In this document: in pieces, positions 954 to 52,280 of the stretch | Position numbering within the stretch: the stretch's first letter is position 1 | Layout of the letters: each line of letters starts with the position of its first letter | Assembly (NCBI GenBank): GCA_019659055.1 | Contig: JAIFWV010000002.1 | Coordinates: forward strand, 26,047-90,046 | From: Candidatus Doudnabacteria bacterium | GTDB lineage: Bacteria > Patescibacteriota > Doudnabacteria > UBA920 > O2-02-FULL-48-8 | Length of the DNA stretch: 64,000 bases | Reading direction: 5' to 3' | Notes under the pieces: generated by a model | What the model was told of the DNA's origin: nothing | What the model saw: only the letters and a program-made list of their open reading frames with translations | Databases searched by the model: none | Program-made: the position numbers and the translations under genes

Positions 954-1595
954 TTAAGTCTTTAAGTAAGTCTTTTCAATTATATCTAAAGCGTCTTTCA
1001 TGATTATCGAATCGTATTTGAGCAAGTCCAAAATGTTGAGCTGGTTGGCCAAGATCACCTTGGCGTTGGACAGATTGCGTCCGGCGCGTTCGACTTCCCT
1101 GTTTGCAGTCGGGATAACCAATAAAAATTTCTTGCCCAATCCGGCGCGGTCGGCAACTCTGGTGAGCATACCGGACAATTCCTTGGATTTAGCGACGTTT
1201 TCCAATTTATCAACTATGACCAATTTCTTGTCTCGGATTTTATCGGACAAAACGGTAAACAATGCTTTGCGAAAAGCCGAGCGGTTCATCTTGAGCGACC
1301 AATCAACTTCGTTGCGCGGACCAAATGTGATGCCGCCATGGCGCCACAATGGTGAGCGGAAGGAGCCGGCGCGAGCGCGGCCCGTGCCTTTTTGCTTCCA
1401 TGGCTTCTTACCAGTACCTGCGACTTCGCCGCGGGTCTTGGTATGAGCAATAGAACGACGGGCATTGTTTCTCTGGGTGCGCACAGCGGCCCAAACCAGA
1501 TTTGCATCCAATTCTTCCAAACCAAAAATCTTTGGATTCAAATCCAGATCGGAAACTTTTTCGCCAGATTGATTATAAACTGCGGCTTTGTTCAT
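954..1595 (-). CDS. rplD: 50S ribosomal protein L4
   Basis: 213-aa translation with L4 motifs (GTGRARAGS.RSPLWRHGG, KFLLVIP); start ATG overlaps upstream stop (ATGA). Confidence 0.9.
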   Translation of the reverse strand: MNKAAVYNQSGEKVSDLDLNPKIFGLEELDANLVWAAVRTQRNNARRSIAHTKTRGEVAGTGKKPWKQKGTGRARAGSFRSPLWRHGGITFGPRNEVDWSLKMNRSAFRKALFTVLSDKIRDKKLVIVDKLENVAKSKELSGMLTRVADRAGLGKKFLLVIPTANREVERAGRNLSNAKVILANQLNILDLLKYDSIIMKDALDIIEKTYLKT

Positions 1596-2272
1596 AATTT
1601 CTCAAACTGCTTCATTAATTCCGGGTAGTCGGTAAAGATTCCATCGACTCCCAGTTTCCTCATTCGTTCGTACTCGTGCCTATCGTTGACTGTCCAAACC
1701 AAAACTTTTTTTGCCAAAAGTCTCAGGATGAGCATCGTGGCGTAAGAGACATATGTGCTCTGCGGATTTACAGAATAGAGTTTGTCTTTACGAGTCAGAA
1801 AACTAATTATAGTTCGGAGGCTCCATTCGCCTTTGGCGAATATGAGACCCAATTGGACGTTTCCGTCCAAAGTTCTGAACTTCTTCAATACTCCCGGATA
1901 AAACGAGGAGATCAGAACCTTGTGCGGAAAACTTTTTAATTTGGCAAAGACTTGTTCTTCGATGCCATGAACCTTGATCTCGATATTGAGATCGGTATGG
2001 ATCACTGCCAAAACTTCGTCGAGAGTCGGGATTTCGCGGCCGTGTTCGGCGCTGACCCGTTTGATTTCGGACAATACCGTGTCGCGAATCAATCGCGGAT
2101 CACCGAACAATCTCAGCATATCGTGATCGTGGACAACCACGAGTTCGCCGTCTGCCGACTTGCGAACATCGAGTTCCAACATATCGGCACCCATGCTCTC
2201 TGCTTTTTGAAAAGAACGGATTGTGTTCTCCGGTTCGGTACCCGAAGCGCCCCTGTGCGCTATAATCTGCAT
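1592..2272 (-). CDS. glycerophosphodiester phosphodiesterase (GDPD/UgpQ family)
   Basis: 226 aa; N-terminal IAHRGASG..PENT and ELDV..DGELVVVHD motifs typical of GDPD; lies between rplC and rplD with TAAATG and ATGA junctions. Confidence 0.8.
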   Translation of the reverse strand: MQIIAHRGASGTEPENTIRSFQKAESMGADMLELDVRKSADGELVVVHDHDMLRLFGDPRLIRDTVLSEIKRVSAEHGREIPTLDEVLAVIHTDLNIEIKVHGIEEQVFAKLKSFPHKVLISSFYPGVLKKFRTLDGNVQLGLIFAKGEWSLRTIISFLTRKDKLYSVNPQSTYVSYATMLILRLLAKKVLVWTVNDRHEYERMRKLGVDGIFTDYPELMKQFEKL

Positions 2273-19669: not shown

Positions 19670-19743
19670 CGGGGTGTAGTATACCGGTAGTACGCGCCCA
19701 TGGGGTGGGTGTAGACAGGGTTCAATTCCCTGCACCCCGACCA
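19670..19743 (+). tRNA. tRNA-Pro (anticodon GGG)
   Basis: manual fold: acceptor CGGGGTG/CACCCCG (C1:G72), D-stem GTAT/GTAC, anticodon stem CGCCC/GGGTG with loop AUGGGGU (U33, GGG, G37), T-arm CAGGG-TTCAATT-CCCTG, discriminator A, encoded CCA. Confidence 0.8.
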
Positions 19744-20002
19744 AATAACGCTCGCATTGATTGTAAATCTACCGGCCGTAAATTTCTGGTGAAATTTCGG
19801 CCTACTCGCTCGGACCAGTCGTCCTGCGCGGGTTAGATTTACAACAAAGCTCGCTAATTTAATATTATTGTAATAAATAATTTAGAAAAAATCATCACTA
19901 TTTTGTGGTGATTTTTTCTTTGCAAAAAAAAGAGGCTCAAGACCTGCACGTATACCGTGCTAGATCGTGAGCCCCGCTTCTGGCCGAGGTGACCAGAGAT
20001 TG

Positions 20003-20185
20003 CTAACTTCCAAGAGGTGGCGCATCCATCCAGTAGTCTCCGACGTATTTCTTGCGCGGCGGCTTTTCCTGGATCGATCCGGGAGAGTTGATTTCCTCGG
20101 TCCGATACGCGAGCTGGTTTCCATCGCGAACCTTGCTACACTGCCGAATCGGAGGATCGTCGCTCTTCTTGTCAGTCTCGTCCAT
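20003..20185 (-). CDS. hypothetical small protein (60 aa), G+C-rich islet
   Basis: SD AAAGGAG 6 nt before ATG at 20185. Confidence 0.4.
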   Translation of the reverse strand: MDETDKKSDDPPIRQCSKVRDGNQLAYRTEEINSPGSIQEKPPRKKYVGDYWMDAPPLGS

Positions 20186-20386
20186 ACACACTCCTTTGGT
20201 GGAAACGTTGTCAGTCGTCGTCGAATGATTCTCCGCGACGGGGGTCGTCCTCACGCAACAGATTGGGATGAATGCGGCATGGCTTGCTGAAAGCGGAGAT
20301 ATCGGTCCTCGCAGACCGGCGGGTCGGTTTCGCCTCAGCCGATCGATGATCCGGAGGTGGTGAGTCTTTTTCTCTCATACTGCTCC

Positions 20387-20644
20387 TTAATCGTCATGAG
20401 GATGACGAAATCCTTCCGGGGGGCTTCGGCGCTGTCTCTTCGGTTTGGGTTCGCCGTCGCGCCGCCGTTTGAGATGTTCGATCCGCAAGCTATAGACCCG
20501 GACGACATCGTCCTGGCCGAGCTTGCCGGCTCGCAAGATTTTCCTCGCCAGCCGTTCGATCTGCGGCTGAATACCGCGGACGGTGTTCAATGACGGCCTG
20601 CGGCGGCCATCTGATTCGAGCGTATGCGCTGACCAGCAGCTCAT
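20387..20644 (-). CDS. hypothetical small basic protein (85 aa), G+C-rich islet
   Basis: SD AAAGGAGA 8 nt before ATG; Arg/Lys-rich, possible nucleic-acid binding. Confidence 0.45.
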   Translation of the reverse strand: MSCWSAHTLESDGRRRPSLNTVRGIQPQIERLARKILRAGKLGQDDVVRVYSLRIEHLKRRRDGEPKPKRQRRSPPEGFRHPHDD

Positions 20645-20646
20645 CC

Positions 20647-20946
20647 TTAGATCTCCTTTTGCGGGATTATCCGAACCAGATCAAACTTGCAGTCCTCGTC
20701 GTCTACCAGCAGCGGTTCGTACCGGAAGAATTCTCCTTGCAGGTACAGTTGCGTATGACCTCCTGGGTCTGAGGCCAGGATGAGGATTTCACCCGGCCGG
20801 CAAAAACGGTTCAGTTCAGTGTGGCAGGTGTAGTTGAGCCCTCTGTTTGATTTGCGTATGCCGTCTGCGGCAATCGCAAGCTGTCGCGAGCGCGTTTCGT
20901 TCTCGTTTGCCGTCTGGCGCGCTAGTCGATCTTGTCGGACAACCAT
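20647..20946 (-). CDS. hypothetical protein (99 aa), G+C-rich islet
   Basis: SD AAGGAGG 8 nt before ATG at 20946 (track ORF begins at TTG 20988). Confidence 0.45.
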   Translation of the reverse strand: MVVRQDRLARQTANENETRSRQLAIAADGIRKSNRGLNYTCHTELNRFCRPGEILILASDPGGHTQLYLQGEFFRYEPLLVDDEDCKFDLVRIIPQKEI

Positions 20947-21294
20947 TGCAGAATCCTCCTTGGACTCGTTTCGAATTTGTAGGTTCAAATTTTGTAAGAC
21001 AAAAATTTATCTCACAGAGTTTGGACCACAAGCGATAAAAAATCCGACCAGGTGGTCGGTTCATCATAGTTTTCGCTTTAAGCTTGGCAATTAGCGTTTT
21101 CTATATGAACCGACATGCACGGGGACGTAATCAAACTTAACCATGCCCAAAATAATTTGGGTGAGTCGAGTCAATGCGTTGTGCAGAAGGTTTTTCATAT
21201 AGTTATCAACAAACCTAGTATAAGTTTAACAATAATAATGCTCTGCGTCAAATGAAAAGACCAAGAACTTGAGTGTTCCTGGTCTTTTTAGCTC

Positions 21295-21492
21295 TCAGAG
21301 CCAAAGCGATTCCGATTTGGGTAGTTGCGCCAACCCGGTCTTGTTTGCAGAAACCGTACCGGCGCTGGGACACCTGGTTTCGTTCATCTGCTCGGCGCTC
21401 TCGTGAACGTCGCCGCAAGCCAGACATTTACGCTTGCCGCTGTCTCCAACCTTGATACTTCCCTTGAGCGTACCACAACTTTGAGCAACCAT
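21295..21492 (-). CDS. hypothetical zinc-ribbon-like small protein (65 aa)
   Basis: SD AAGGAGG 4 nt before ATG; CGTLKG...CLACGDVHE...C; terminator-like hairpin at 21256-21290. Confidence 0.45.
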   Translation of the reverse strand: MVAQSCGTLKGSIKVGDSGKRKCLACGDVHESAEQMNETRCPSAGTVSANKTGLAQLPKSESLWL

Positions 21493-21662
21493 GACTCCTC
21501 CTTAATTCTGACACTTCGTTTCGACTTCCAAGACATGGCAGAAATTTTGTCTCTGACAAGTCATGCAAAGCCAGTAGCGGCCGATCTTTACGCAATTTTT
21601 ATGTGGGCCGATTTCGATGATCCGAATCTCATCTCGTGTCTTCAATCTCCTCCTCCTCTTAA

Positions 21663-21854
21663 TTATTCTTTGTAAGCTTGAACCGCAAGATTGGCTGACC
21701 TTTGAGCATTCTTATCGGACAACCCGACTGATCGCTCGTGGTTGTAGAGCAGCAACCACAAGTCTTTCTTTTTCCCGGACAAGTAATTAGGCGGCCAAGT
21801 TCGGCTCTCACTGACCGAGTTGTTCATTACTCGGAGCGTTGCTAAATCCCACAT
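21663..21854 (-). CDS. hypothetical small protein (63 aa)
   Basis: SD AAGGAGG 6 nt before ATG. Confidence 0.4.
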   Translation of the reverse strand: MWDLATLRVMNNSVSESRTWPPNYLSGKKKDLWLLLYNHERSVGLSDKNAQRSANLAVQAYKE

Positions 21855-21989
21855 CCATGTCCTCCTTACCAGCCGTTTCCGAGATAAATGTTCACCGGCA
21901 GACGATCCGGGTTAAATCGAATTAGATTGTAATCGCCGTACTGACCCTTGCCGAGTTTGTGTATGAGTTTCATCAGATCTCTGGCTAAA

Positions 21990-22109
21990 TTACGGGCGCC
22001 AAAGATCCTCCTGGGCCACGAAATCCAAAAACTCTTCGCAATCGGCGTATTGGGGCGGGCCACACCTTGAACTTGCCATAATCCTAAAAAACGTTAGACG
22101 GTAATGCAT
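21990..22109 (-). CDS. hypothetical micro-protein (39 aa)
   Basis: perfect SD AAGGAGG + 4 nt + ATG at 22109; not in ORF track because <60 aa; overlaps track ORF 21866..22063 (GTG start) in another frame. Confidence 0.3.
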   Translation of the reverse strand: MHYRLTFFRIMASSRCGPPQYADCEEFLDFVAQEDLWRP

Positions 22110-22282
22110 AGTTCCTCCTTGTAAACAAAAACACCGGCCGCAATGGTCGGTGTGAAGTTTCAATTTCAAATGAAAACTTACCCGGCCAGTGCGTCGGTAT
22201 AAAAGTAAAACCAGAATGAATTAGCCGAATGAATTTTCATAGTATAGTAATTATACACCCAAGTGCTGTCGCTTGTCAAAAA

Positions 22283-23167
22283 TTATTCCAATTTATGGAC
22301 CTTGTCCATGAATGCATCCAATTCTTCTTTGCTGAAAAATTCAATCATGATTTTGCCGGACTCACCCGTTTTCTGGACTTTGACCTTGGTTCCCAATTTC
22401 CCGCGGAGTTCGTTCTCTATAGCCATTGTTTCCGGATCACTGGAAGTCTTCGGGGCTTTGATCATTTTGGGCCTCTGCATGATTTCGCGGGCTTTTTCTT
22501 CTACTTGCCGGACTGTAAGCATATCGGAAACCACCAACTCAAACAGTGCCAGCTGTTTTTCCATTCCGACCACTCCCAGGATTGCCCGGCCGTGCCCTTC
22601 GGAGATAATTCCTTCGGCTATCGCCCTCTGGATTTTGAGCGGCAGGTTGAGCAAACGCAAAGTGTTGGCGACTGTCGTACGGTTTTTCCCCATTTTCTGC
22701 GCCACTTGCTCTTGCGTCATACTATATGCCTCCATGAGCTGTTTGTATGCCGTCGCCTCTTCGATCGGGTCGAGATTGTGTCTCTGAATGTTCTCAATCA
22801 GCGCTAGCTCCAGCTGGAGCTGTTCGGTCATGGCATCGCGCACGATTGCGGGGACTTTCGCAAGGCCTGCAATCTTAGACGCCCGCAAGCGGCGCTCCCC
22901 GACTATCAATTGATAATTACCATCTCCCGTCGGGATGACCACGAGGGGCTGGAGGATACCGTGTTGCTTGATCGAAGTCGCCAGTTCATCAAGATTTTCC
23001 TCGCGGAAAATCTTACGCGGTTGCCACGGATTAGGTTTGATGAGGTTTATGTCGATTTCGGTAAAATGCTCGGGCAAAAGCGCCACCGGCGTCCCCGGCG
23101 GGTCAGTAACCGGCAAGCTTGCCGAAAGTTCATTTGAAAGTATTGATTGTGGGGTGTTTTCTTCCAT
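22283..23167 (-). CDS. parB: ParB/Spo0J-family partition protein (orphan, no adjacent parA)
   Basis: 294 aa; ParB N-terminal box (GILQPLVV..GDGNYQLIVGERRLRASKIAG) and HTH (TQEQVAQKMGKNRTTVANTLRLL). Confidence 0.85.
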   Translation of the reverse strand: MEENTPQSILSNELSASLPVTDPPGTPVALLPEHFTEIDINLIKPNPWQPRKIFREENLDELATSIKQHGILQPLVVIPTGDGNYQLIVGERRLRASKIAGLAKVPAIVRDAMTEQLQLELALIENIQRHNLDPIEEATAYKQLMEAYSMTQEQVAQKMGKNRTTVANTLRLLNLPLKIQRAIAEGIISEGHGRAILGVVGMEKQLALFELVVSDMLTVRQVEEKAREIMQRPKMIKAPKTSSDPETMAIENELRGKLGTKVKVQKTGESGKIMIEFFSKEELDAFMDKVHKLE

Positions 23168-23190
23168 CAGGATTCCTTATAACGATTATA

Positions 23191-23934
23191 TCACGTCGGC
23201 TTCAAAAGCGAATAAATCTTATCCTCAAGTTTGTAGAATTCAGGAGACCTTAGGTTTCTGGGTCGAGGCAGAGTGTTATTTATAATCTTAAGCACGTGCC
23301 CCGGCCGTCCGGATAAAACTGCAATCCGATCGGACAGCTCCAATGCTTCCTGAATGATATGTGAGACCATAATGATGGTAAGCTTGCGTTTATGCCATAT
23401 CTCAAGTAATTCCCGGCGGAGGGTTTCCGCGCTGAAGTAATCGAGCTCCGAGAACGGTTCGTCCAAAAACAAAATTTTGGGATCTGTGGCCATGGCCCGG
23501 GCAATTCCCACGCGCTGGCGCATACCTCCCGAAAGTTCGTGCGGAAAAGATTCCGAAAATTTCTGCAAACCAAACTGCTCGAGTTCCCGCCGAACTACTT
23601 CCTTGCGTTCGGCTTCGGGAATATTGCGGCCAATCAATCCGAGCTCGATATTCTCATAAACTGTCAGCCAAGGCAGAAGCGCAAACTGTTGGAAGACAAA
23701 GCCAAGATCAGACGGATTAATACTCGGCAAGGTGTAGACTTGCCCTTCGAAATCCGTATCCAATCCCGAGAGGGCACGCAAAATCGTCGACTTGCCTGAA
23801 CCAGAAGGGCCGACAATTACAAAAAACTCGCCTTCAGTAATGGACAGGTCGATGTTCTCGAGCGCCAAAAGATGCTTCCCTGGAGCCTCTTGGTAAAATT
23901 TAGTCAGATTGGTTGTTTTGATTATGGGTTTCAT
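23191..23934 (-). CDS. ABC transporter ATP-binding protein (NitT/TauT-like)
   Basis: Walker A GPSGSGKST, signature LSGGMRQR, Walker B ILFLDEP. Confidence 0.88.
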   Translation of the reverse strand: MKPIIKTTNLTKFYQEAPGKHLLALENIDLSITEGEFFVIVGPSGSGKSTILRALSGLDTDFEGQVYTLPSINPSDLGFVFQQFALLPWLTVYENIELGLIGRNIPEAERKEVVRRELEQFGLQKFSESFPHELSGGMRQRVGIARAMATDPKILFLDEPFSELDYFSAETLRRELLEIWHKRKLTIIMVSHIIQEALELSDRIAVLSGRPGHVLKIINNTLPRPRNLRSPEFYKLEDKIYSLLKPT

Positions 23935-24639
23935 TTATTCCTCGAGCATGACATGACTCTTCTCAAGCAAAGGCGTCCAAATAATTTTATTTATAGAAAA
24001 CACGATCAAGAGCAGGCCGAGAATACCAAAAAAAGTGATCGTTGGATGTGTGCTGAATCTTTGAAAAAAAGTTCCCAACCCCGGTTTGACGTTCACGATA
24101 ATTTCTGTGGCGATCAGGGCCTCCCAGCCTTCGCCGAGGCTTATAATCGATCCGGTGATCAAACCCGGTACGGTTACTGGCCAGAGAAAATATCGAAAAT
24201 AATTCCATCCGGATAATCTCGACATCTCAGCCGCTTCCACCCAATCTTTGCGTACGAGCTTCAAGGATGAGATGACATTGAAACAAATCGGCCAGACGAT
24301 AGTGATCGTGAGAAAAAAAATGACGGTAAAATTCGTAGCCCCCCAATAATAAGCAGCAAACGGGACTGCGGCAAAAATCGGAAAGCTCTGCAGGACATCA
24401 AAAAGCGGCAAGGCCACATGAGAACGGGAACCCCGATAAAACAACGCCGCTAAACACCAGCCCAACGCGGCGGCAAGAATGTATGCGGCCAAAAGCCGGA
24501 AAATCGAGATGAAAACATCATAGAATAGCTCCCCTGTGGCAATCTTTACGACTTTAGAGAAAAATAGCAAAAATAAAAAAGGCAGAGCGACAATTAAGAT
24601 CGTAGCCACCAAATGTGCCCGGCTCCGGTAAATTTTCAT
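23935..24639 (-). CDS. ABC transporter permease (NitT/TauT-like)
   Basis: multi-TM permease abutting ATPase gene; track N-terminus (to 24729) is read-through of the tRNA fragment, start at MKIYRS (24639) preferred. Confidence 0.75.
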   Translation of the reverse strand: MKIYRSRAHLVATILIVALPFLFLLFFSKVVKIATGELFYDVFISIFRLLAAYILAAALGWCLAALFYRGSRSHVALPLFDVLQSFPIFAAVPFAAYYWGATNFTVIFFLTITIVWPICFNVISSLKLVRKDWVEAAEMSRLSGWNYFRYFLWPVTVPGLITGSIISLGEGWEALIATEIIVNVKPGLGTFFQRFSTHPTITFFGILGLLLIVFSINKIIWTPLLEKSHVMLEE

Positions 24640-24683
24640 TCGATTTCGGTTTCTATGATTTTGCATTTTTTGTCCCGTACAAA

Positions 24684-24747
24684 TGGTGCCGCTGGTCGGA
24701 ATCGAACCGACATGGCCGTAAGGCCACACGATTTTGAGTCGTGCGTG
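24684..24747 (-). pseudogene. partial duplicate of tRNA-Leu(CAA): 3' 64 nt only (anticodon arm to CCA), no matching 5' half
   Basis: 64-nt segment identical to the corresponding part of the full tRNA-Leu 88 nt away; upstream sequence cannot pair as acceptor stem. Confidence 0.6.
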
Positions 24748-24771
24748 CCCCGCACCAGCAATCTATACAAA

Positions 24772-24858
24772 TGGTGCCGCTGGTCGGAATCGAACCGACA
24801 TGGCCGTAAGGCCACACGATTTTGAGTCGTGCGTGTCTGCCAGTTCCACCACAGCGGC
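24772..24858 (-). tRNA. tRNA-Leu (anticodon CAA), type II with long variable arm
   Basis: acceptor GCCGCTG/CAGCGGC, anticodon stem CACGA/TCGTG with loop CUCAAAA, variable arm TGGCCTTACGGCCAT, T-arm GTCGG-TTCGATT-CCGAC, A73, encoded CCA. Confidence 0.8.
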
Positions 24859-24868
24859 CCCATTTGAA

Positions 24869-24960
24869 TACATTGTATTTGCGGTGCGGGGTAAATCTGC
24901 CAGCCTGCCCCGTAGTGAAGCTTTGCTTCTACTACCAGGGTTCCACTTACCGCGGCCCCA
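24869..24960. other. unexplained structured non-coding segment adjacent to tRNA-Leu (long imperfect hairpins; not foldable as tRNA)
   Basis: GTAGTGAAGC-TTT-GCTTCTACTAC hairpin, CGGGG..CCCCG pairing, GGGGCCGCGG palindrome; 9-bp GGTGCGGGG inverted copy of sequence at 24748-24756. Confidence 0.3.
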
Positions 24961-24980
24961 TCTGTAAACGACAACCTATT

Positions 24981-25487
24981 CTAACTCGAAATGGGTTTTT
25001 TGAAAAGGCCGCGCAAAGCGGCGGCAATGACCGCGGCGATGATAACACTGGCCGCAATATCAATAGGAAAATGTACGCCGACATATACCCGCGCCAGCGA
25101 GCCCAATGACGCCAGGATTATAAACGGCCAAAAATATTTTGTGCCGTAGAATGCAAACGCAAAACTAAAATAAATTACTGTATGACCGGAGGGAAAAGAC
25201 ATGCCATGCTCATTGTCTGCTAAGAGCTGATGAATATTGGCCACGATTTCATAGGGTCTGGGATGATTTACGATCCTTTTGATGACCTCCACGATAAAAA
25301 GACGGGAAACCGCAGCGGCCAATACCGCCAAATAAACATGGGTTCTAAGTCGCTTATCCAGCCACAAGGCCACAATGATAATGGCAAAAACATATAAAAA
25401 TTTCTCAGCAAAAAAGACTCCCAATGTATCGAAGAATTGGGATCGGCCGGCTAATCCATTGATTGCAAGAAAAATTTGTTGGTTCAT
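24981..25487 (-). CDS. PAP2-family phosphatase (undecaprenyl-diphosphatase-like)
   Basis: KRIVNHPRP, SFPSGH, GVHFPIDIAAS = PAP2 motifs; track start 25499 is GTG, ATG at 25487. Confidence 0.75.
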   Translation of the reverse strand: MNQQIFLAINGLAGRSQFFDTLGVFFAEKFLYVFAIIIVALWLDKRLRTHVYLAVLAAAVSRLFIVEVIKRIVNHPRPYEIVANIHQLLADNEHGMSFPSGHTVIYFSFAFAFYGTKYFWPFIILASLGSLARVYVGVHFPIDIAASVIIAAVIAAALRGLFKKPISS

Positions 25488-41744: not shown

Positions 41745-44087
41745 ATGAAAAATGAAAACTCTCCTACAATCCTAGCGGTTTTTGGCGCAACCGGCGATCT
41801 CGTATCGCGCAAACTTTTGCCGGCCATCTATCATCTTTACCGAAACAAACAGCTCCCGAACAAATTTAAAGTCATAGGTGTTGCCCGCCGTCCGTTTTCC
41901 GACGACGAATTTCGCAAGCTTATGAAAAAAGCGCTGGTGGCCAAAATCCGCCGGCCCGAGAAACTCGACGAATTTCTCAAACTCTTCAGCTATCATCAGG
42001 GCCAGTTTGATCAAGACGCAACATACACCTCGCTGAAAAAAGTATTAAATGCTCAGGATACCAAATGGAAAACTCGGGCCAATAAACTTTTTTACCTGGC
42101 CACACCCCCTAATTTCTATGATAATCTCCTACACAAACTTGCCGGCACGGGACTAGCCAAGCAAACCGGAAAAACCTGGGCGCGGATCATTGTCGAGAAA
42201 CCTTTTGGCAAAGACCTAGACCACGCCGAACATCTCGATGTGCTTTTGGGCAAACTATTCGACGAATCGCAAGTCTATCGCATCGACCATTACCTGGCCA
42301 AAGAAGTTTTGCAAAACATCATGGCGTTTCGGTTTGCCAACAATCTTCTGGAAGACGTCTGGAACCGCAAGTACGTGGAAAAGATTGAAATCAAACTCCT
42401 GGAAGAAATCGATGTCGAAGGCCGCGGGGAATTCTATGACGGCGTGGGCGCTCTGCTCGATGTCGGCCAAAACCACCTCCTCCAGGAATTGGCGCTCGTG
42501 ACCATGGATAAACCCGAAAGTTTCCGCACGGTCGATATCCATGCCCGCCGCGCCGAAATCCTGAAAAATCTGCGGCTCATGAATGCTGAGACTGTAAAGA
42601 GTGATACTATGCGCGCACAATACACAGGTTACACGCGGGAACCAGGGGTGGCCCGAAATTCCAACACGGAAACTTATTTCAAGCTTGAGACTTATATCGA
42701 CAACCCTCGCTGGCAAGATGTCCCGATCTACCTGGAAGCGGGAAAAAAATTCCCGGCCAACGAAAAATCAGTCACGGTGACATTCAAGCATCCCGAGCCA
42801 TGCTTGTGCCCACCCGGTGTACATTACCAAAACCGAGTTATCTTCCGCATCCAGCCCACCCCGGGAATCGAAATCGAATTTTGGAGCAAGAAACCCAACT
42901 CCTCGGGCATGGAACTCGAGAAACGCCTTTTGCACTTCAACTACGAATCCGACCCAAGCACGAGATATTTGGCCGAATACGCCAAGCTCATCTCCGACAG
43001 TCTCGCCGGAGATCAGACTTTGTTTGTCTCAAGCCGCGAAGCGATTTCATCGTGGAGATTTATAGACCCGATCGTTAAGGCGTGGAAAGCCAAACTCACT
43101 CCGTTACTCACGTATAAAAAAGATTTTAAAATCCTGTCCGAATTTGATCGACGAATCCGGCCTCAGCGGCCATTTACGAAATTGGCCATGGTCGGCTTGG
43201 GTAAGATGGGCAAGAGCCTCTCGCTGCAACTTTTGGAAAAAGGATTTTCGCTTGTAGCGGCCAATACTCATTCCAAAGACGCGGTGAGCGAACTCTCGCG
43301 CCACTCAAACTTCCACGCTTACCCAACCGACCAGCAAATGCTGGCCAGTCTCCCTAAGCCCCGGCTGGTCTGGCTCATGGTCCCGCACGCGCAAGTCGAT
43401 GAAGTTTTATTTGGCAAAGACGGGTTGGCCAAAATCCTCGACCGCGGCGATATCGTCATCGACTCGGGGAATTCATATTTCAAAGACACTATACGCCGGG
43501 GACGCCTGCTTACGCGCCGCGGCATCGAATTTATGGACCTCGGCTTTTCTGGTGGACCGGGAGGCGCGCGCCGCGGCGGCTGTCTCATGATCGGCGGCAA
43601 AAAATCTCTCTACCAAAAACTCGAGCATGTCTTTGCGAGTATGGCGGCTGACGGCGCCTATAATTATTTCGGCAAGATCGGCGCCGGCCATTTCGTGAAG
43701 ATGGTCCACAACGGCATCGAATACGGCATGATGCAATCGCTGGCGGAAGGCTTTGGCATCCTCAAAGCGTCTCCGTTTCGCCTCAATCTCATCGACGTTG
43801 CGGATATCTATAACCACGGCAGTGTTATAGAGTCGCGGCTCGTGGGCTGGCTTAAGGATGGATTTGAGATGCGCGGCCAAAACCTTAAGGGCATTACCGG
43901 GGTGGTGGGCTACACCGGCGAAGGCGAATGGACTGCCAAGACTGCCAAACAGCTCCGCGTGCCGGCCAAAATTATCGAAGAATCATTTCTCTTCCGGGTG
44001 AAATCAAAAAAGACACAAAGTTTCGTGAGTAAACTTGTGTCATCTATGCGCGAACAATTCGGAGGCCACAGTGTGCGCTCGGTTTGA
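41745..44087 (+). CDS. zwf: bifunctional fusion: glucose-6-phosphate dehydrogenase (N-terminal ~480 aa) + 6-phosphogluconate dehydrogenase, short NAD(P)-binding form (C-terminal ~290 aa)
   Basis: single 780-aa ORF; G6PD motifs VFGATGDL, RIDHYLAKE, EKPFG; after WRFIDPIVKAW a ~30-aa linker then 6PGDH motifs MVGLGKMG, GxAGxGHFVKMVHNGIEYGMMQ. Confidence 0.8.
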   Translation: MKNENSPTILAVFGATGDLVSRKLLPAIYHLYRNKQLPNKFKVIGVARRPFSDDEFRKLMKKALVAKIRRPEKLDEFLKLFSYHQGQFDQDATYTSLKKVLNAQDTKWKTRANKLFYLATPPNFYDNLLHKLAGTGLAKQTGKTWARIIVEKPFGKDLDHAEHLDVLLGKLFDESQVYRIDHYLAKEVLQNIMAFRFANNLLEDVWNRKYVEKIEIKLLEEIDVEGRGEFYDGVGALLDVGQNHLLQELALVTMDKPESFRTVDIHARRAEILKNLRLMNAETVKSDTMRAQYTGYTREPGVARNSNTETYFKLETYIDNPRWQDVPIYLEAGKKFPANEKSVTVTFKHPEPCLCPPGVHYQNRVIFRIQPTPGIEIEFWSKKPNSSGMELEKRLLHFNYESDPSTRYLAEYAKLISDSLAGDQTLFVSSREAISSWRFIDPIVKAWKAKLTPLLTYKKDFKILSEFDRRIRPQRPFTKLAMVGLGKMGKSLSLQLLEKGFSLVAANTHSKDAVSELSRHSNFHAYPTDQQMLASLPKPRLVWLMVPHAQVDEVLFGKDGLAKILDRGDIVIDSGNSYFKDTIRRGRLLTRRGIEFMDLGFSGGPGGARRGGCLMIGGKKSLYQKLEHVFASMAADGAYNYFGKIGAGHFVKMVHNGIEYGMMQSLAEGFGILKASPFRLNLIDVADIYNHGSVIESRLVGWLKDGFEMRGQNLKGITGVVGYTGEGEWTAKTAKQLRVPAKIIEESFLFRVKSKKTQSFVSKLVSSMREQFGGHSVRSV

Positions 44088-50987: not shown

Positions 50988-51268
50988 TATTTGATAAATG
51001 CCAAACCCACGGCCACGCAGTGTTGGCAGAAATAATTTTTCTTGGAGGTGCAGGTGCATTTCCAGCGCAAGCCCTTGGGTGTGGATTCCAGATGCACAGT
51101 GCGTTTCTCATGGTGTCCTTGCTTCACCTGAGCAATATGGTTGTATGTGTTTGATTTCACAAGCGTAAACTCCCCGTCCTTGGCAATCCCTTTGCCATAG
51201 CGAAAGTTGGATCTGGTCGCCAGATCCTCCAAGGCGTCTTCGGAAATATATTCTCTAAGCGGCTTCAT
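50987..51268 (-). CDS. SWIM zinc-finger protein (93 aa)
   Basis: WKCTCTSKKNYFCQHCVA = CxCx(n)CxH SWIM signature. Confidence 0.6.
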   Translation of the reverse strand: MKPLREYISEDALEDLATRSNFRYGKGIAKDGEFTLVKSNTYNHIAQVKQGHHEKRTVHLESTPKGLRWKCTCTSKKNYFCQHCVAVGLAFIK

Positions 51269-52280
51269 TTGAGGCGTCTCTATTCTCGTTATCCAGTTCA
51301 GCTTGGTATTGTTTTTGTTGCGCTCTTTTTACGGTATCCACGTGTTGTTGGACCCTCTTCCAGAGTTCGGGATTTATTTCATTTATATCCATGCTCTCCA
51401 TGAGTCCCACCATTACCATTTGATTATATTCTTCGTTTACTTTGAAAAGCCCTTCCAACATGCTCTTGCCCAGTACTTCAGCGGCAAGTTCACGGAAATC
51501 TTCATTTGCTAAATTCTCCCCTTCTAATTTACCTCGAATTATAGCACCCCAGACTGTATCTCTCGATACTCCGGTTTCGTGTACAATCTTCTCTATTAAA
51601 GCTTCTACAAAAAACACAGGTATTTGATAAGGGCGGTTATTGGCGGGATCAAAATATCTTTTTATTTCGTTGCCGTTCTCAAATTCGGGATGAGATTTAA
51701 GGTAATCCCGGGTGACTTCCCGGGCCAGCAATTCTGTCACCCCTTCATCAAAAAGTGCGAATGCTCTGTCTCGTCTCTCCTCATCATTTGTTCTTTCAAA
51801 AGTTTCCAGACCATATCCCGCTTGTCTGAATAACATTCCGAATTCTTCGCCATTATCATATTCCAGAAATCCTTGGCAATTGAATTTAGAAACTGCGTGG
51901 ACCTCCTCGTGTATGAGAGTTTCTAAAAAAAACAATTTTTCGGAAACTCCATTATCCTTCCCATATGCTTCAATGACTTCTGGATTTAGGGTGATCATAT
52001 TTTGCATCATCATATATGTACCACCATCCTCCAGGTCACGAGAAGAAAAAATAATATCATCAGCGAACACCATATTTATACTCTCTGGCGCGACGTCTGT
52101 CTTTTTCAAAAGGCTGATAAAAGATGATTTTAGAGATTCAAAATCAACATCCCCAAGATAGCCCTCGAATTCCGGAGAGGATTCATGTAATTCTTTATAT
52201 TCAGGATTACCCTTCTGTATCCCTTGGTCTACTCCTTCCTCAAGCTCACCATTTAAACTGAAAAATTCTCTGCTTTTCAT
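51255..52280 (-). CDS. hypothetical HExxH-motif protein (putative metalloprotease-like, 341 aa)
   Basis: TLIHEEVHAVS motif; acidic, A+T-rich gene. Confidence 0.45.
   Translation of the reverse strand: MKSREFFSLNGELEEGVDQGIQKGNPEYKELHESSPEFEGYLGDVDFESLKSSFISLLKKTDVAPESINMVFADDIIFSSRDLEDGGTYMMMQNMITLNPEVIEAYGKDNGVSEKLFFLETLIHEEVHAVSKFNCQGFLEYDNGEEFGMLFRQAGYGLETFERTNDEERRDRAFALFDEGVTELLAREVTRDYLKSHPEFENGNEIKRYFDPANNRPYQIPVFFVEALIEKIVHETGVSRDTVWGAIIRGKLEGENLANEDFRELAAEVLGKSMLEGLFKVNEEYNQMVMVGLMESMDINEINPELWKRVQQHVDTVKRAQQKQYQAELDNENRDASNEAA

Follow-up and report, generated by a model that had tools for sequence, protein, structure and literature searches.

A complete tRNA-Leu gene nested in the D-loop of a second tRNA-Leu gene recurs among Doudnabacteria-like CPR bacteria

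We found that the minus-strand segment 24956-24684 in DNA from a Candidatus Doudnabacteria bacterium is a single outer tRNA-Leu(CAA) gene that holds an intact tRNA-Leu(CAA) gene in its D-loop. The segment lies in a 64-kb window, that is, the whole stretch of DNA that was analyzed (64,000 nucleotides). Two inserts lie in the outer D-loop, a 36-nt hairpin (24939-24904) and a 148-nt cassette (24895-24748) that contains the inner gene. The cassette is probably a promoterless tRNA-Leu replacement cassette that entered the D-loop of a resident tRNA-Leu gene and is expressed from the resident promoter, the resident pieces being relics in decay. The locus is made up of the following parts.

24978-25006, minus strand: promoter-like site (-35 TTTTCA, 25006-25001; -10 TAGAAT, 24983-24978)
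24956-24684, minus strand: disrupted outer tRNA-Leu(CAA) gene, spanning the whole segment, with the two inserts in its D-loop
24940-24956, minus strand: outer tRNA-Leu 5' piece, GCCGCGG-TAA-GTG-GAAC (acceptor 5' strand, D-stem 5' strand, and start of the D-loop)
24904-24939, minus strand: small hairpin insert of 36 nt at D-loop position 16/17, CCTGGTAGT-A-GAAGC-AAA-GCTTC-ACTACGGGG plus an unpaired CAGG tail
24896-24903, minus strand: remainder of the outer D-loop, CTGGCAGA, including G18 and G19; the cassette starts after its last A
24748-24895, minus strand: 148-nt cassette, with boundaries as in 15 loci
24895-24892, minus strand: TTTA, the left end of the cassette
24891-24883, minus strand: left arm of the cassette, CCCCGCACC, 9 nt, pairing with the right arm
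24882-24859, minus strand: cassette leader, 24 nt, pairing with the discriminator, CCA, and trailer
24772-24858, minus strand: inner intact tRNA-Leu(CAA), class II with a long variable arm, A73, and encoded CCA (ARAGORN, Rfam)
24771-24757, minus strand: cassette trailer, 15 nt, between the inner tRNA and the right arm
24756-24748, minus strand: right arm of the cassette, GGTGCGGGG, 9 nt, pairing with the left arm
24684-24747, minus strand: outer tRNA-Leu 3' piece, from D-stem 3' strand CAC to CCA, starting CACGCACGACT and equal to the 3' 64 nt of the inner copy
24678-24683, minus strand: TTTGTA beyond CCA, the last 6 nt of a 70-nt identity tract
24637-24639, minus strand: likely true ATG of the ABC permease, from which alone the L001 and L003 homologues align

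The complete type-II tRNA-Leu(CAA) that the first-pass annotation had placed at 24772-24858 was confirmed by ARAGORN, which called tRNA-Leu(CAA), and by the Rfam tRNA model, which scored 56.2 bits against a gathering score of 29. With its cloverleaf, long variable arm, CAA anticodon, A73, and 3' end reading ...CAGCGGC-A-CCA, the inner tRNA is a bacterial class II tRNA-Leu and is presumed to be the functional gene. The exact copy of its 3' part was also confirmed, except that the repeat is 70 nt long and not 64 nt, as it runs 6 nt (TTTGTA) past CCA: positions 24678-24747 equal 24766-24835 with 100% identity, a period of 88 nt, and 18 nt between the copies. Conversely, the view that this copy has no 5' half did not hold, since the 5' part lies upstream at 24956-24940 and 24903-24896. 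Local alignment showed that the structured segment on the minus strand starts with GCCGCGGTAAGTGGAAC, which corresponds, with some divergence, to the first 16 nt of the inner tRNA, GCCGCTGTGGTGGAAC. The outer 5' piece of the window carries a G6 x A67 mismatch and one additional nucleotide 5' of the D stem; its equivalent in the relative L104 reads GCCGCTG TA ATG GAAC. When both inserts were deleted in silico, ARAGORN called the outer tRNA-Leu(CAA). The fragment and the upstream segment do therefore give the second bona fide tRNA that had been named as a competing possibility, here a second tRNA-Leu(CAA), but only after the two inserts are removed.

The remaining structured sequence could be assigned to these same parts. 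The GC-rich segment at 24869-24960, previously left unexplained, is real but is no separate RNA; it consists of the cassette leader and left arm, the 8 nt of D-loop, the 36-nt hairpin, and the first 17 nt of the outer gene. Likewise, the 9-bp inverted repeat is present and perfect, but its halves do not merely bracket the intact gene: they form the termini of the insert, paired with each other, and they lie within a longer, imperfect inverted repeat of 36 nt that includes the acceptor stem. A lone 9-bp inverted repeat is not unusual by chance in a stretch of about 300 nt, and we took that of the cassette as real because it is conserved with compensatory changes in relatives. The arm motif occurred at this locus only in the 64-kb window. 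The minimum free energy fold of the 306-nt stretch 24670-24975 reproduced the nested arrangement (-147 kcal/mol; z = -8.8 against dinucleotide shuffles). The naive open reading frame of the ABC permease (GTG start, to 24729) crosses the outer 3' piece, so that the reported read-through of the partial copy is true from the first GTG; the alignment of homologues begins only at the ATG at 24639.

The first-pass annotation had interpreted the locus as the remnant, or the edge, of an integration or excision event at tRNA-Leu. This was right in that there is an insertion into a tRNA-Leu gene and that the 3' part is a displaced fragment of that gene; the attL/attR scar model itself was unfit. A scar of this type is expected to comprise a hybrid intact tRNA with a host 5' part and an element 3' part, a single displaced 3' fragment, the element lying between these two, and also an integrase. 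In the window, the 3' part of the tRNA is indeed repeated exactly and directly next to an intact tRNA, as a tyrosine-integrase element at the tRNA-Leu 3' part would leave it, but only the 18 nt lie between the copies, a 5' fragment is displaced as well, and the intact tRNA has a 5' half, leader, and trailer of its own. Moreover, the whole insert is 148 nt, no integrase was detected among about 48 open reading frames of the window, the downstream 3' part in relatives belongs to another tRNA sequence, one that agrees with the upstream 5' piece, and the identity in the window is the product of lineage-specific conversion (see below). We therefore consider such a scar very improbable.

The surroundings of the locus are those of a bacterial core region, with Pfam matches to ribosomal proteins, EF-Tu, EF-G, LeuRS, MetRS, Tgt, ParB, and a GGDEF/EAL protein. 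In about 48 open reading frames of the 64-kb window, Pfam scans detected no integrase or transposase, nor any homing or splicing endonuclease or RNA ligase, and no mobilizer gene or site-specific endonuclease was found adjoining the nested loci in relatives. A PLSDB megablast of the locus gave no match, and a scan of viral contigs with the junction 17-mer gave eight matches, all due to chance and within coding sequence, with no tRNA near. Sensitive Rfam scans yielded nothing beyond tRNA-clan partial matches to the fragment. There were no exact-protein records for the PAP2 protein, permease (two start sites), or SHMT of the window. The nearest SHMT relatives were in metagenome-assembled genomes of Candidatus Doudnabacteria and other Patescibacteria, and the gene order LeuRS-Sua5-MFS-SHMT-PAP2-tRNA-Leu-...-ParB is conserved in relatives.

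Comparison with related genomes, which the first-pass annotation had proposed, revealed that the insert in tRNA-Leu is present in some relatives and missing from others. At the syntenic locus, L004, L006, L037, and L009 are nested, L009 with three levels, whereas L001, L003, L007, L008, L010, and L011 have a plain single tRNA-Leu(CAA); L002, L005, L109, and L112 have no tRNA at the locus and a different gene order. A metagenome scan by the 5' junction returned 15 loci, 13 of which were genuine; the metagenome matches L089 and L093 were dismissed as chance matches. In all, the nested architecture with an identical insertion point was found in about 17 independent assemblies of Doudnabacteria-like CPR bacteria. 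The junctions, GGCAGA/TTTACCCCGCA on the left and TGCGGGG/CRC on the right, are common to L004, L006, L009, L037, the 13 metagenome loci, and L104, with the conservation of the left one being in part ascertainment, as the search pattern required the GGCAGA-side junction. All cassettes begin with TTTA-CCCCGCA and finish with TGCGGGG, with GGCAGA immediately before them and the D-stem 3' strand immediately after. Two size classes were seen, short cassettes of 114-117 nt and long ones of 148-160 nt. No target-site duplication was detected in 15 parsed loci, whose flanks (...GGCAGA and CRC...) have no repeated bases. The nested loci occupy at least four genomic contexts, many of them par-adjacent and others elsewhere (L081/L085, L083/L088, and L086), and two distinct loci have a tRNA-Leu(UAG) inside a tRNA-Leu(UAG) relic. 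No cassette was found outside tRNA-Leu genes or in the viral contigs scanned.

The L006 locus shows that the two flanking pieces belong together. Its downstream 3' part has a distinct tRNA-Leu sequence whose acceptor strand, CCGCGGC, pairs perfectly with the upstream GCCGCGG, and its D-stem 3' strand is CGC in the outer gene and CAC in the inner gene, unlike each other. The relatives also bear on whether the window was misassembled or underwent a trivial tandem duplication by replication slippage. An exact 70-nt repeat with an 88-nt period could be read in this way, and contigs assembled from short reads of a related population end within it. However, L104 (93% identical), an independent assembly, has the same layout as the window with different bases, which excludes the assembly artifact raised in the first-pass annotation; in addition, about 17 other assemblies share the architecture with non-identical halves, and the repeat units diverge wholly after 70 nt, unlike those of a tandem duplication. 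Artifact or slippage is thus hardly credible as an explanation.

We then compared the state of the inner and outer genes. ARAGORN called the inner copy alone in every nested locus. After removal of the inserts, five of the nine complete outer genes (that of the window and four of the eight others) were called by ARAGORN and four were not. Acceptor stems of the nine complete outer genes contained mismatches in three cases and G.U pairs in three more, while no acceptor mismatch was seen on reading the sequences of 21 inner or single genes. At least five further outer genes are truncated: the 5' part is missing from those of L083/L088 and L091 and the 3' part from those of L081 and L094. In L092, the anticodon arm of the outer gene is destroyed. 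Since ARAGORN recognizes only the inner gene, and outer genes have damaged acceptors, missing parts, and, in L092, a lost anticodon arm, we are confident that most outer copies are relics at varied stages of decay, the inner copy being always intact. The outer gene of L006 and the middle gene of L009 have perfect acceptor stems once their inserts are removed, with a D-stem 3' strand unlike that of the inner gene; such flawless genes fit recent insertion and are also compatible with retained function.

The arrangement of expression signals suggests that the nested genes are transcribed together. Between PAP2 and the permease there is a single promoter-like site, about 20 nt upstream of the first base of the outer gene, and in relatives TTGAGC/TAAAAT or TAGAAT motifs lie directly upstream of the outermost 5' end and intrinsic terminators downstream of the outer 3' end. 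Short-type cassettes have just 19 nt 5' of the tRNA and hence no room for a promoter. From the lone upstream promoter-like site, the terminators 3' of the outer gene, and the promoterless short cassettes, we infer a single precursor.

Within such a precursor, the two cassette arms form a stem and the leader base-pairs with the discriminator, CCA, and first trailer bases, which lengthens the inner acceptor stem into a long stalk. In 13 distinct cassettes, the 15-pair leader/trailer helix was paired in 90% of cells, against 78% in shuffles (0 of 500 shuffles matched it), and eight of its pairs show double-sided changes, including TGAT/ATCA in L083. The closing stem of long-type cassettes was paired at 13 of 13 pairs in all sequences, three pairs being compensatory, and between the window and L104 it differs by a compensatory change from C-G to T-A (U-A in RNA). 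The G.U pairs that are frequent in the helix work on the tRNA-sense strand only, which points to selection on the transcript. In folding tests of a possible insulator role for the helix, scrambling the leader lowered only moderately, if at all decisively, the predicted pairing of the inner acceptor from 0.98 to 0.67-0.84, whereas scrambling the 9-nt arm alone had no effect; mispairing of the inner tRNA with the outer copy was never predicted.

The phylogenetic distribution of the cassette indicates repeated gain, loss, and recombination. In a neighbor-joining SHMT tree with bootstraps, which rests on a single linked gene, the nested window was sister to L001 with its single tRNA (97% bootstrap), and the nested L082 was sister to the single L007 (81%) in a 92% clade mixing both states. 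Four states occur in close relatives: L104 (93% SHMT identity) is nested as in the window, L108 (88%) has no relics and one tRNA followed by a cassette-like trailer, L110 (86%) a single mosaic tRNA, and L111 (85%) a plain single gene. The interleaving of nested and single states and these four states together account for our conclusion. Similarity among cassette flanks was also incongruent with the SHMT tree: those of L082 were nearest the flanks of the window (69%) as compared with those of its own clade mates (55-58%), and the long-type flanks of L009 bear a different cargo tRNA.

These data bear on whether there was one ancient local rearrangement, followed by vertical descent with decay, conversion, and loss but no ongoing mobility. 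All cassettes share homologous ends and the insertion point, most tRNA-Leu(CAA) cases are at one par-adjacent locus, and no mobilizing enzyme was found in the window or beside nested loci, all as a single origin would have it. Such a history is, however, at odds with the three nested levels of L009, with cassettes in tRNA-Leu(UAG) genes and unrelated contexts, with the interleaved states at 81-97% bootstrap, and with the conflict between flank similarity and the host tree. Furthermore, intact single type-O genes (L007 and L010) are sister to lineages with a decayed outer type-O gene; since the outer type-O gene had already decayed in the sister lineages, simple loss would be unable to restore the type-O singles. 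A single origin without mobility is accordingly unlikely. We are moderately confident that the cassette spreads, either through an enzyme acting in trans or through conversion driven by homology among tRNA-Leu copies.

Sequence exchange between the copies was evident from their 3' parts, which are 65-81% identical between the inner and outer genes in relatives and 100% identical in the window. In L104 the two differ in the variable arm: both copies of the window carry GGCCTTACGGCC, and the inner copy of L104 carries GGCTTTACAGCC, a compensatory pair difference. Since the identity in the window extends 6 nt past CCA, it reflects DNA-level conversion or duplication and not selection on the tRNA, and we are confident that the 70-nt identity is a gene-conversion tract, that is, concerted evolution in the lineage of the window. 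A chimeric T arm in L090 provides a second example of conversion. We also considered the outer gene of the window as "type O" with a converted 3' half; this was ruled out, as the outer gene of L104 is type-I-like at both ends.

The small hairpin of the window (-16.7 kcal/mol; z = -4.7) belongs to a family with 15 examples of 30-43 nt, in which a two-tier stem is closed by CCCC(G)/(C)GGGG and followed by a 4-nt unpaired tail, CA(A/G)G. The hairpins are placed at D-loop 16/17 or between U33 and C34, and their inner pairs covary (CACC/GGTG, CAGT/ACTG, GTATC/GATAC, and GTAGT/ACTAC). They were confined to tRNA-Leu relics, with the signature nowhere else in the 886 kb of sequence scanned, and never occurred in an ARAGORN-called tRNA. 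In L087/L095, an "empty" arm-loop-arm-TAAA hairpin lies in reverse orientation within a decayed cassette tRNA. A pure relic model does not explain why hairpin structure is kept by compensatory changes within presumed pseudogenes.

This maintenance of structure leads to the alternative that both genes are functional and that the inserts are new bacterial intervening sequences removed at the RNA level, with the inner tRNA coming from the "intron" and the outer halves being ligated or acting as a two-piece tRNA held by the closing stem. The inserts are all in loops (D-loop 16/17, D-loop 21/22, anticodon loop 33/34, and T-loop) and never in stems, covariation is seen in the hairpin stems and the closing stem, with G.U pairing confined to the sense strand, and the outer gene of L006 and the middle gene of L009 are perfect once de-inserted. 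Yet most outer genes remain damaged after insert removal, in the acceptors, in the D or anticodon stems, or by missing parts, and that of the window retains its G6 x A67 mismatch and the extra nucleotide before the D stem. The inserts also show neither a convincing bulge-helix-bulge (BHB) motif nor the core of a group I or II intron, the 64-kb window yielded no splicing endonuclease or RNA ligase, and the hairpin is absent from every tRNA called by ARAGORN. We thus regard function of both genes as quite improbable.

Returning to the replacement cassette, we propose the following course of events. A complete replacement tRNA-Leu(CAA) would have cut the D-loop of a resident tRNA-Leu(CAA) exactly between ...GGCAGA and the D-stem 3' strand. 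The composite would be transcribed as one precursor from the resident promoter, ending in relatives at the resident terminator, and the cassette ends and leader/trailer pairing would place the inner tRNA atop one long helix, from which ordinary enzymes may release it (RNase P, 3' trimming, and possibly RNase III on the stalk). The resident halves would then be non-functional relics that decay, gain further hairpin inserts of the same stem family, and exchange sequence with the inner copy by gene conversion, which in the window would have made the 3' 70 nt identical. Final deletion of the relics would leave a single, sometimes mosaic gene that is open to new invasion.

A bolder version, which we put forward tentatively, is that the cassette may be an enzyme-less, promoterless "replacement tRNA" selfish element that homes into the D-loop of its own isoacceptor. 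Such an element could be indispensable because it kills the resident copy and supplies the only working one, and Russian-doll nesting could arise because each cassette copy brings a fresh target. More radically, and as part of the same tentative proposal, the locus might be an RNA-level intervening-sequence system yielding two tRNAs or a two-piece tRNA.

The nested loci resemble several known systems in part. Tests for a MITE/REP-like element showed terminal inverted repeats, with target-site duplication absent and dispersed copies absent (64-kb window; 886 kb). As for a homing-type element, a fixed insertion site was found, as was a presence/absence pattern incongruent with host phylogeny (single linked SHMT gene); a site-specific endonuclease was not found in the window or flanking nested loci. 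As in tRNA-integrating islands and prophages, the insertion disrupts a tRNA gene, the inserted DNA restores function, and a displaced fragment forms a direct repeat. Islands and prophages, however, carry a replacement 3' part, whereas here a whole tRNA lies in the D-loop within an insert of 114-160 nt, without an integrase and with both 5' and 3' relics.

Group I introns are known from the anticodon loops of bacterial tRNAs, those of Patescibacteria included (PMC13011429). Homing group I introns share with the cassette a fixed site in a conserved tRNA gene, a patchy distribution in relatives, and a CPR host. They splice, whereas here function is restored by a replacement gene and no ribozyme core or homing endonuclease was found: in Rfam searches, no intron family was detected at E <= 10 (24600-25020) or at E <= 0.5 (whole window). 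The inserts of 36 and 148 nt, 87 nt of the latter being tRNA, are too small for group I or II introns.

Archaea and a few eukaryotes provide the textbook examples of disrupted tRNA genes, and we know of no archaeal tRNA intron that contains another complete tRNA. As in archaeal disrupted tRNAs, several intervening sequences here lie at non-canonical positions including the D-loop, and paired leaders hold the halves together; in contrast to them, the host is a bacterium, the BHB motif is lacking, and the outer genes are pseudogene-like. At the boundaries of 15 large and seven small inserts, no convincing BHB motif was found, with one weak, G.U-dependent match. Archaeal tRNA genes that are split or tri-split, or that hold several BHB introns or transposable introns, are described in work cited in PMC10714607 and PMC3978253. 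In Thermoproteales, introns of this kind behave like mobile elements. The small hairpins are similar to the palindromic elements inserted in genes, namely Rickettsia palindromic elements, Correia elements, REPINs, and yeast mitochondrial GC clusters (PMC4478555), in being short and GC-rich with inverted-repeat ends, without coding capacity, and inside genes. They differ from these in occurring in tRNA-Leu relics only, without target-site duplication, and in having one version with a tRNA in the loop. Since neither a tRNA nested in a tRNA nor such hairpins were described in the literature searched, the "Russian-doll" layout appears to be undescribed.

A complete tRNA gene in the D-loop of another, recurring in a CPR lineage and up to three deep, would add a new mode of essential-gene invasion and functional replacement. 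It also has practical consequences for annotation. Standard tRNA finders detect the inner gene alone, relics give neighboring open reading frames spurious N-terminal extensions, as in the ABC permease here, and the internal repeats break short-read assemblies: three such assemblies of the L104 population (L105-L107) end within the repeated part. The tRNA-Leu "types" at the locus are mosaics and therefore unsafe as naive phylogenetic markers. The locus raises the questions of what inserts the cassette, what selects for the closing helix, and how the precursor is processed in organisms with reduced RNA-processing machinery.

Finally, TTTGTA and the following CGGGAC beyond the outer 3' piece resemble a decayed right end of a cassette, and we tentatively note a possible third, outermost relic level in the window (p = 0.006-0.07, uncorrected).

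An "empty" form of the cassette, CCCCGCACC-ttatt-GGTGCGGGG-TAAA, was found in two related loci (L087, 10080-10117; L095, 964-1019), where it lies in reverse orientation within a decayed tRNA that is itself borne by a cassette. This form suggests that the basic unit consists of the hairpin plus its 4-nt tail, with the tRNA as cargo. Outer tRNA-Leu relics also carried further GC-rich inserts of 30-36 nt in the T-loop, at about 4130-4190 in L083 (with an equivalent in L088) and at about 4990-5060 in L086; these were unlike the hairpin family of the D-loop and anticodon loop in sequence.

In the window, the minus-strand flanks of the outer gene read AGGTTGtcG-TTTAC-AGATGGG upstream (24958-24980) and ACCA-TTTG-TACGGGA-C downstream (24672-24683). 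Their likeness to decayed short-type cassette ends (p 0.006-0.07, uncorrected) faintly hints that a third, nearly erased nesting level may surround this gene.

Nested tRNA-Leu genes break assemblies: for the population that carries P0002 (93% SHMT identity), each of three Logan short-read assemblies (contig ends L105, L106, and L107) stopped within the repeated part of tRNA-Leu.

tRNA-Leu(CAA) recurrently adjoins parA/parB in this CPR group, both in the window (22283-24858) and in four other loci (L084, L087, L091, and L092), and in the Doudnabacteria-like set LeuRS lies 4 kb upstream; we attach no functional significance to this arrangement. In the relative L110, LeuRS is 972 aa long (1-673; the gene runs off the locus). 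Because precomputed Ser_hydrolase/alpha-beta-hydrolase matches fall within this protein, its sequence suggests that it carries an inserted domain.

Adjoining parB, about 2.5 kb of the window (19750-22280) lacks any ORF longer than 116 aa, and GC content rises to 55-56% at 20.0-21.0 kb. Two ORFs tested from this region gave no Pfam match, and the region had no Rfam match. The stretch might hold an origin, small genes that escaped annotation, or an RNA of a new kind. One tRNA called by ARAGORN lies just outside it:

19670-19743, plus strand, tRNA-Pro(GGG)

This gene was absent from the default Rfam gathering run; since it scored 49.8 bits in the sensitive run, its absence was a filter miss rather than the mark of an odd tRNA.

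Elsewhere in the window, three long ORFs had no Pfam match at E <= 1e-5:

51255-52280, minus strand, ORF of 341 aa
56281-58743, minus strand, ORF of 820 aa
61198-62817, minus strand, ORF of 539 aa

A glycerophosphodiester phosphodiesterase (GDPD) gene (1592-2272, minus strand) is flanked by rplD (954-1595) and rplC (2273-2893); the ribosomal-protein operon spanning these two genes is normally contiguous. The sole long gene on the plus strand of the window (41745-44087) is a 780-aa ORF in which glucose-6-phosphate dehydrogenase and 6-phosphogluconate dehydrogenase domains are fused.
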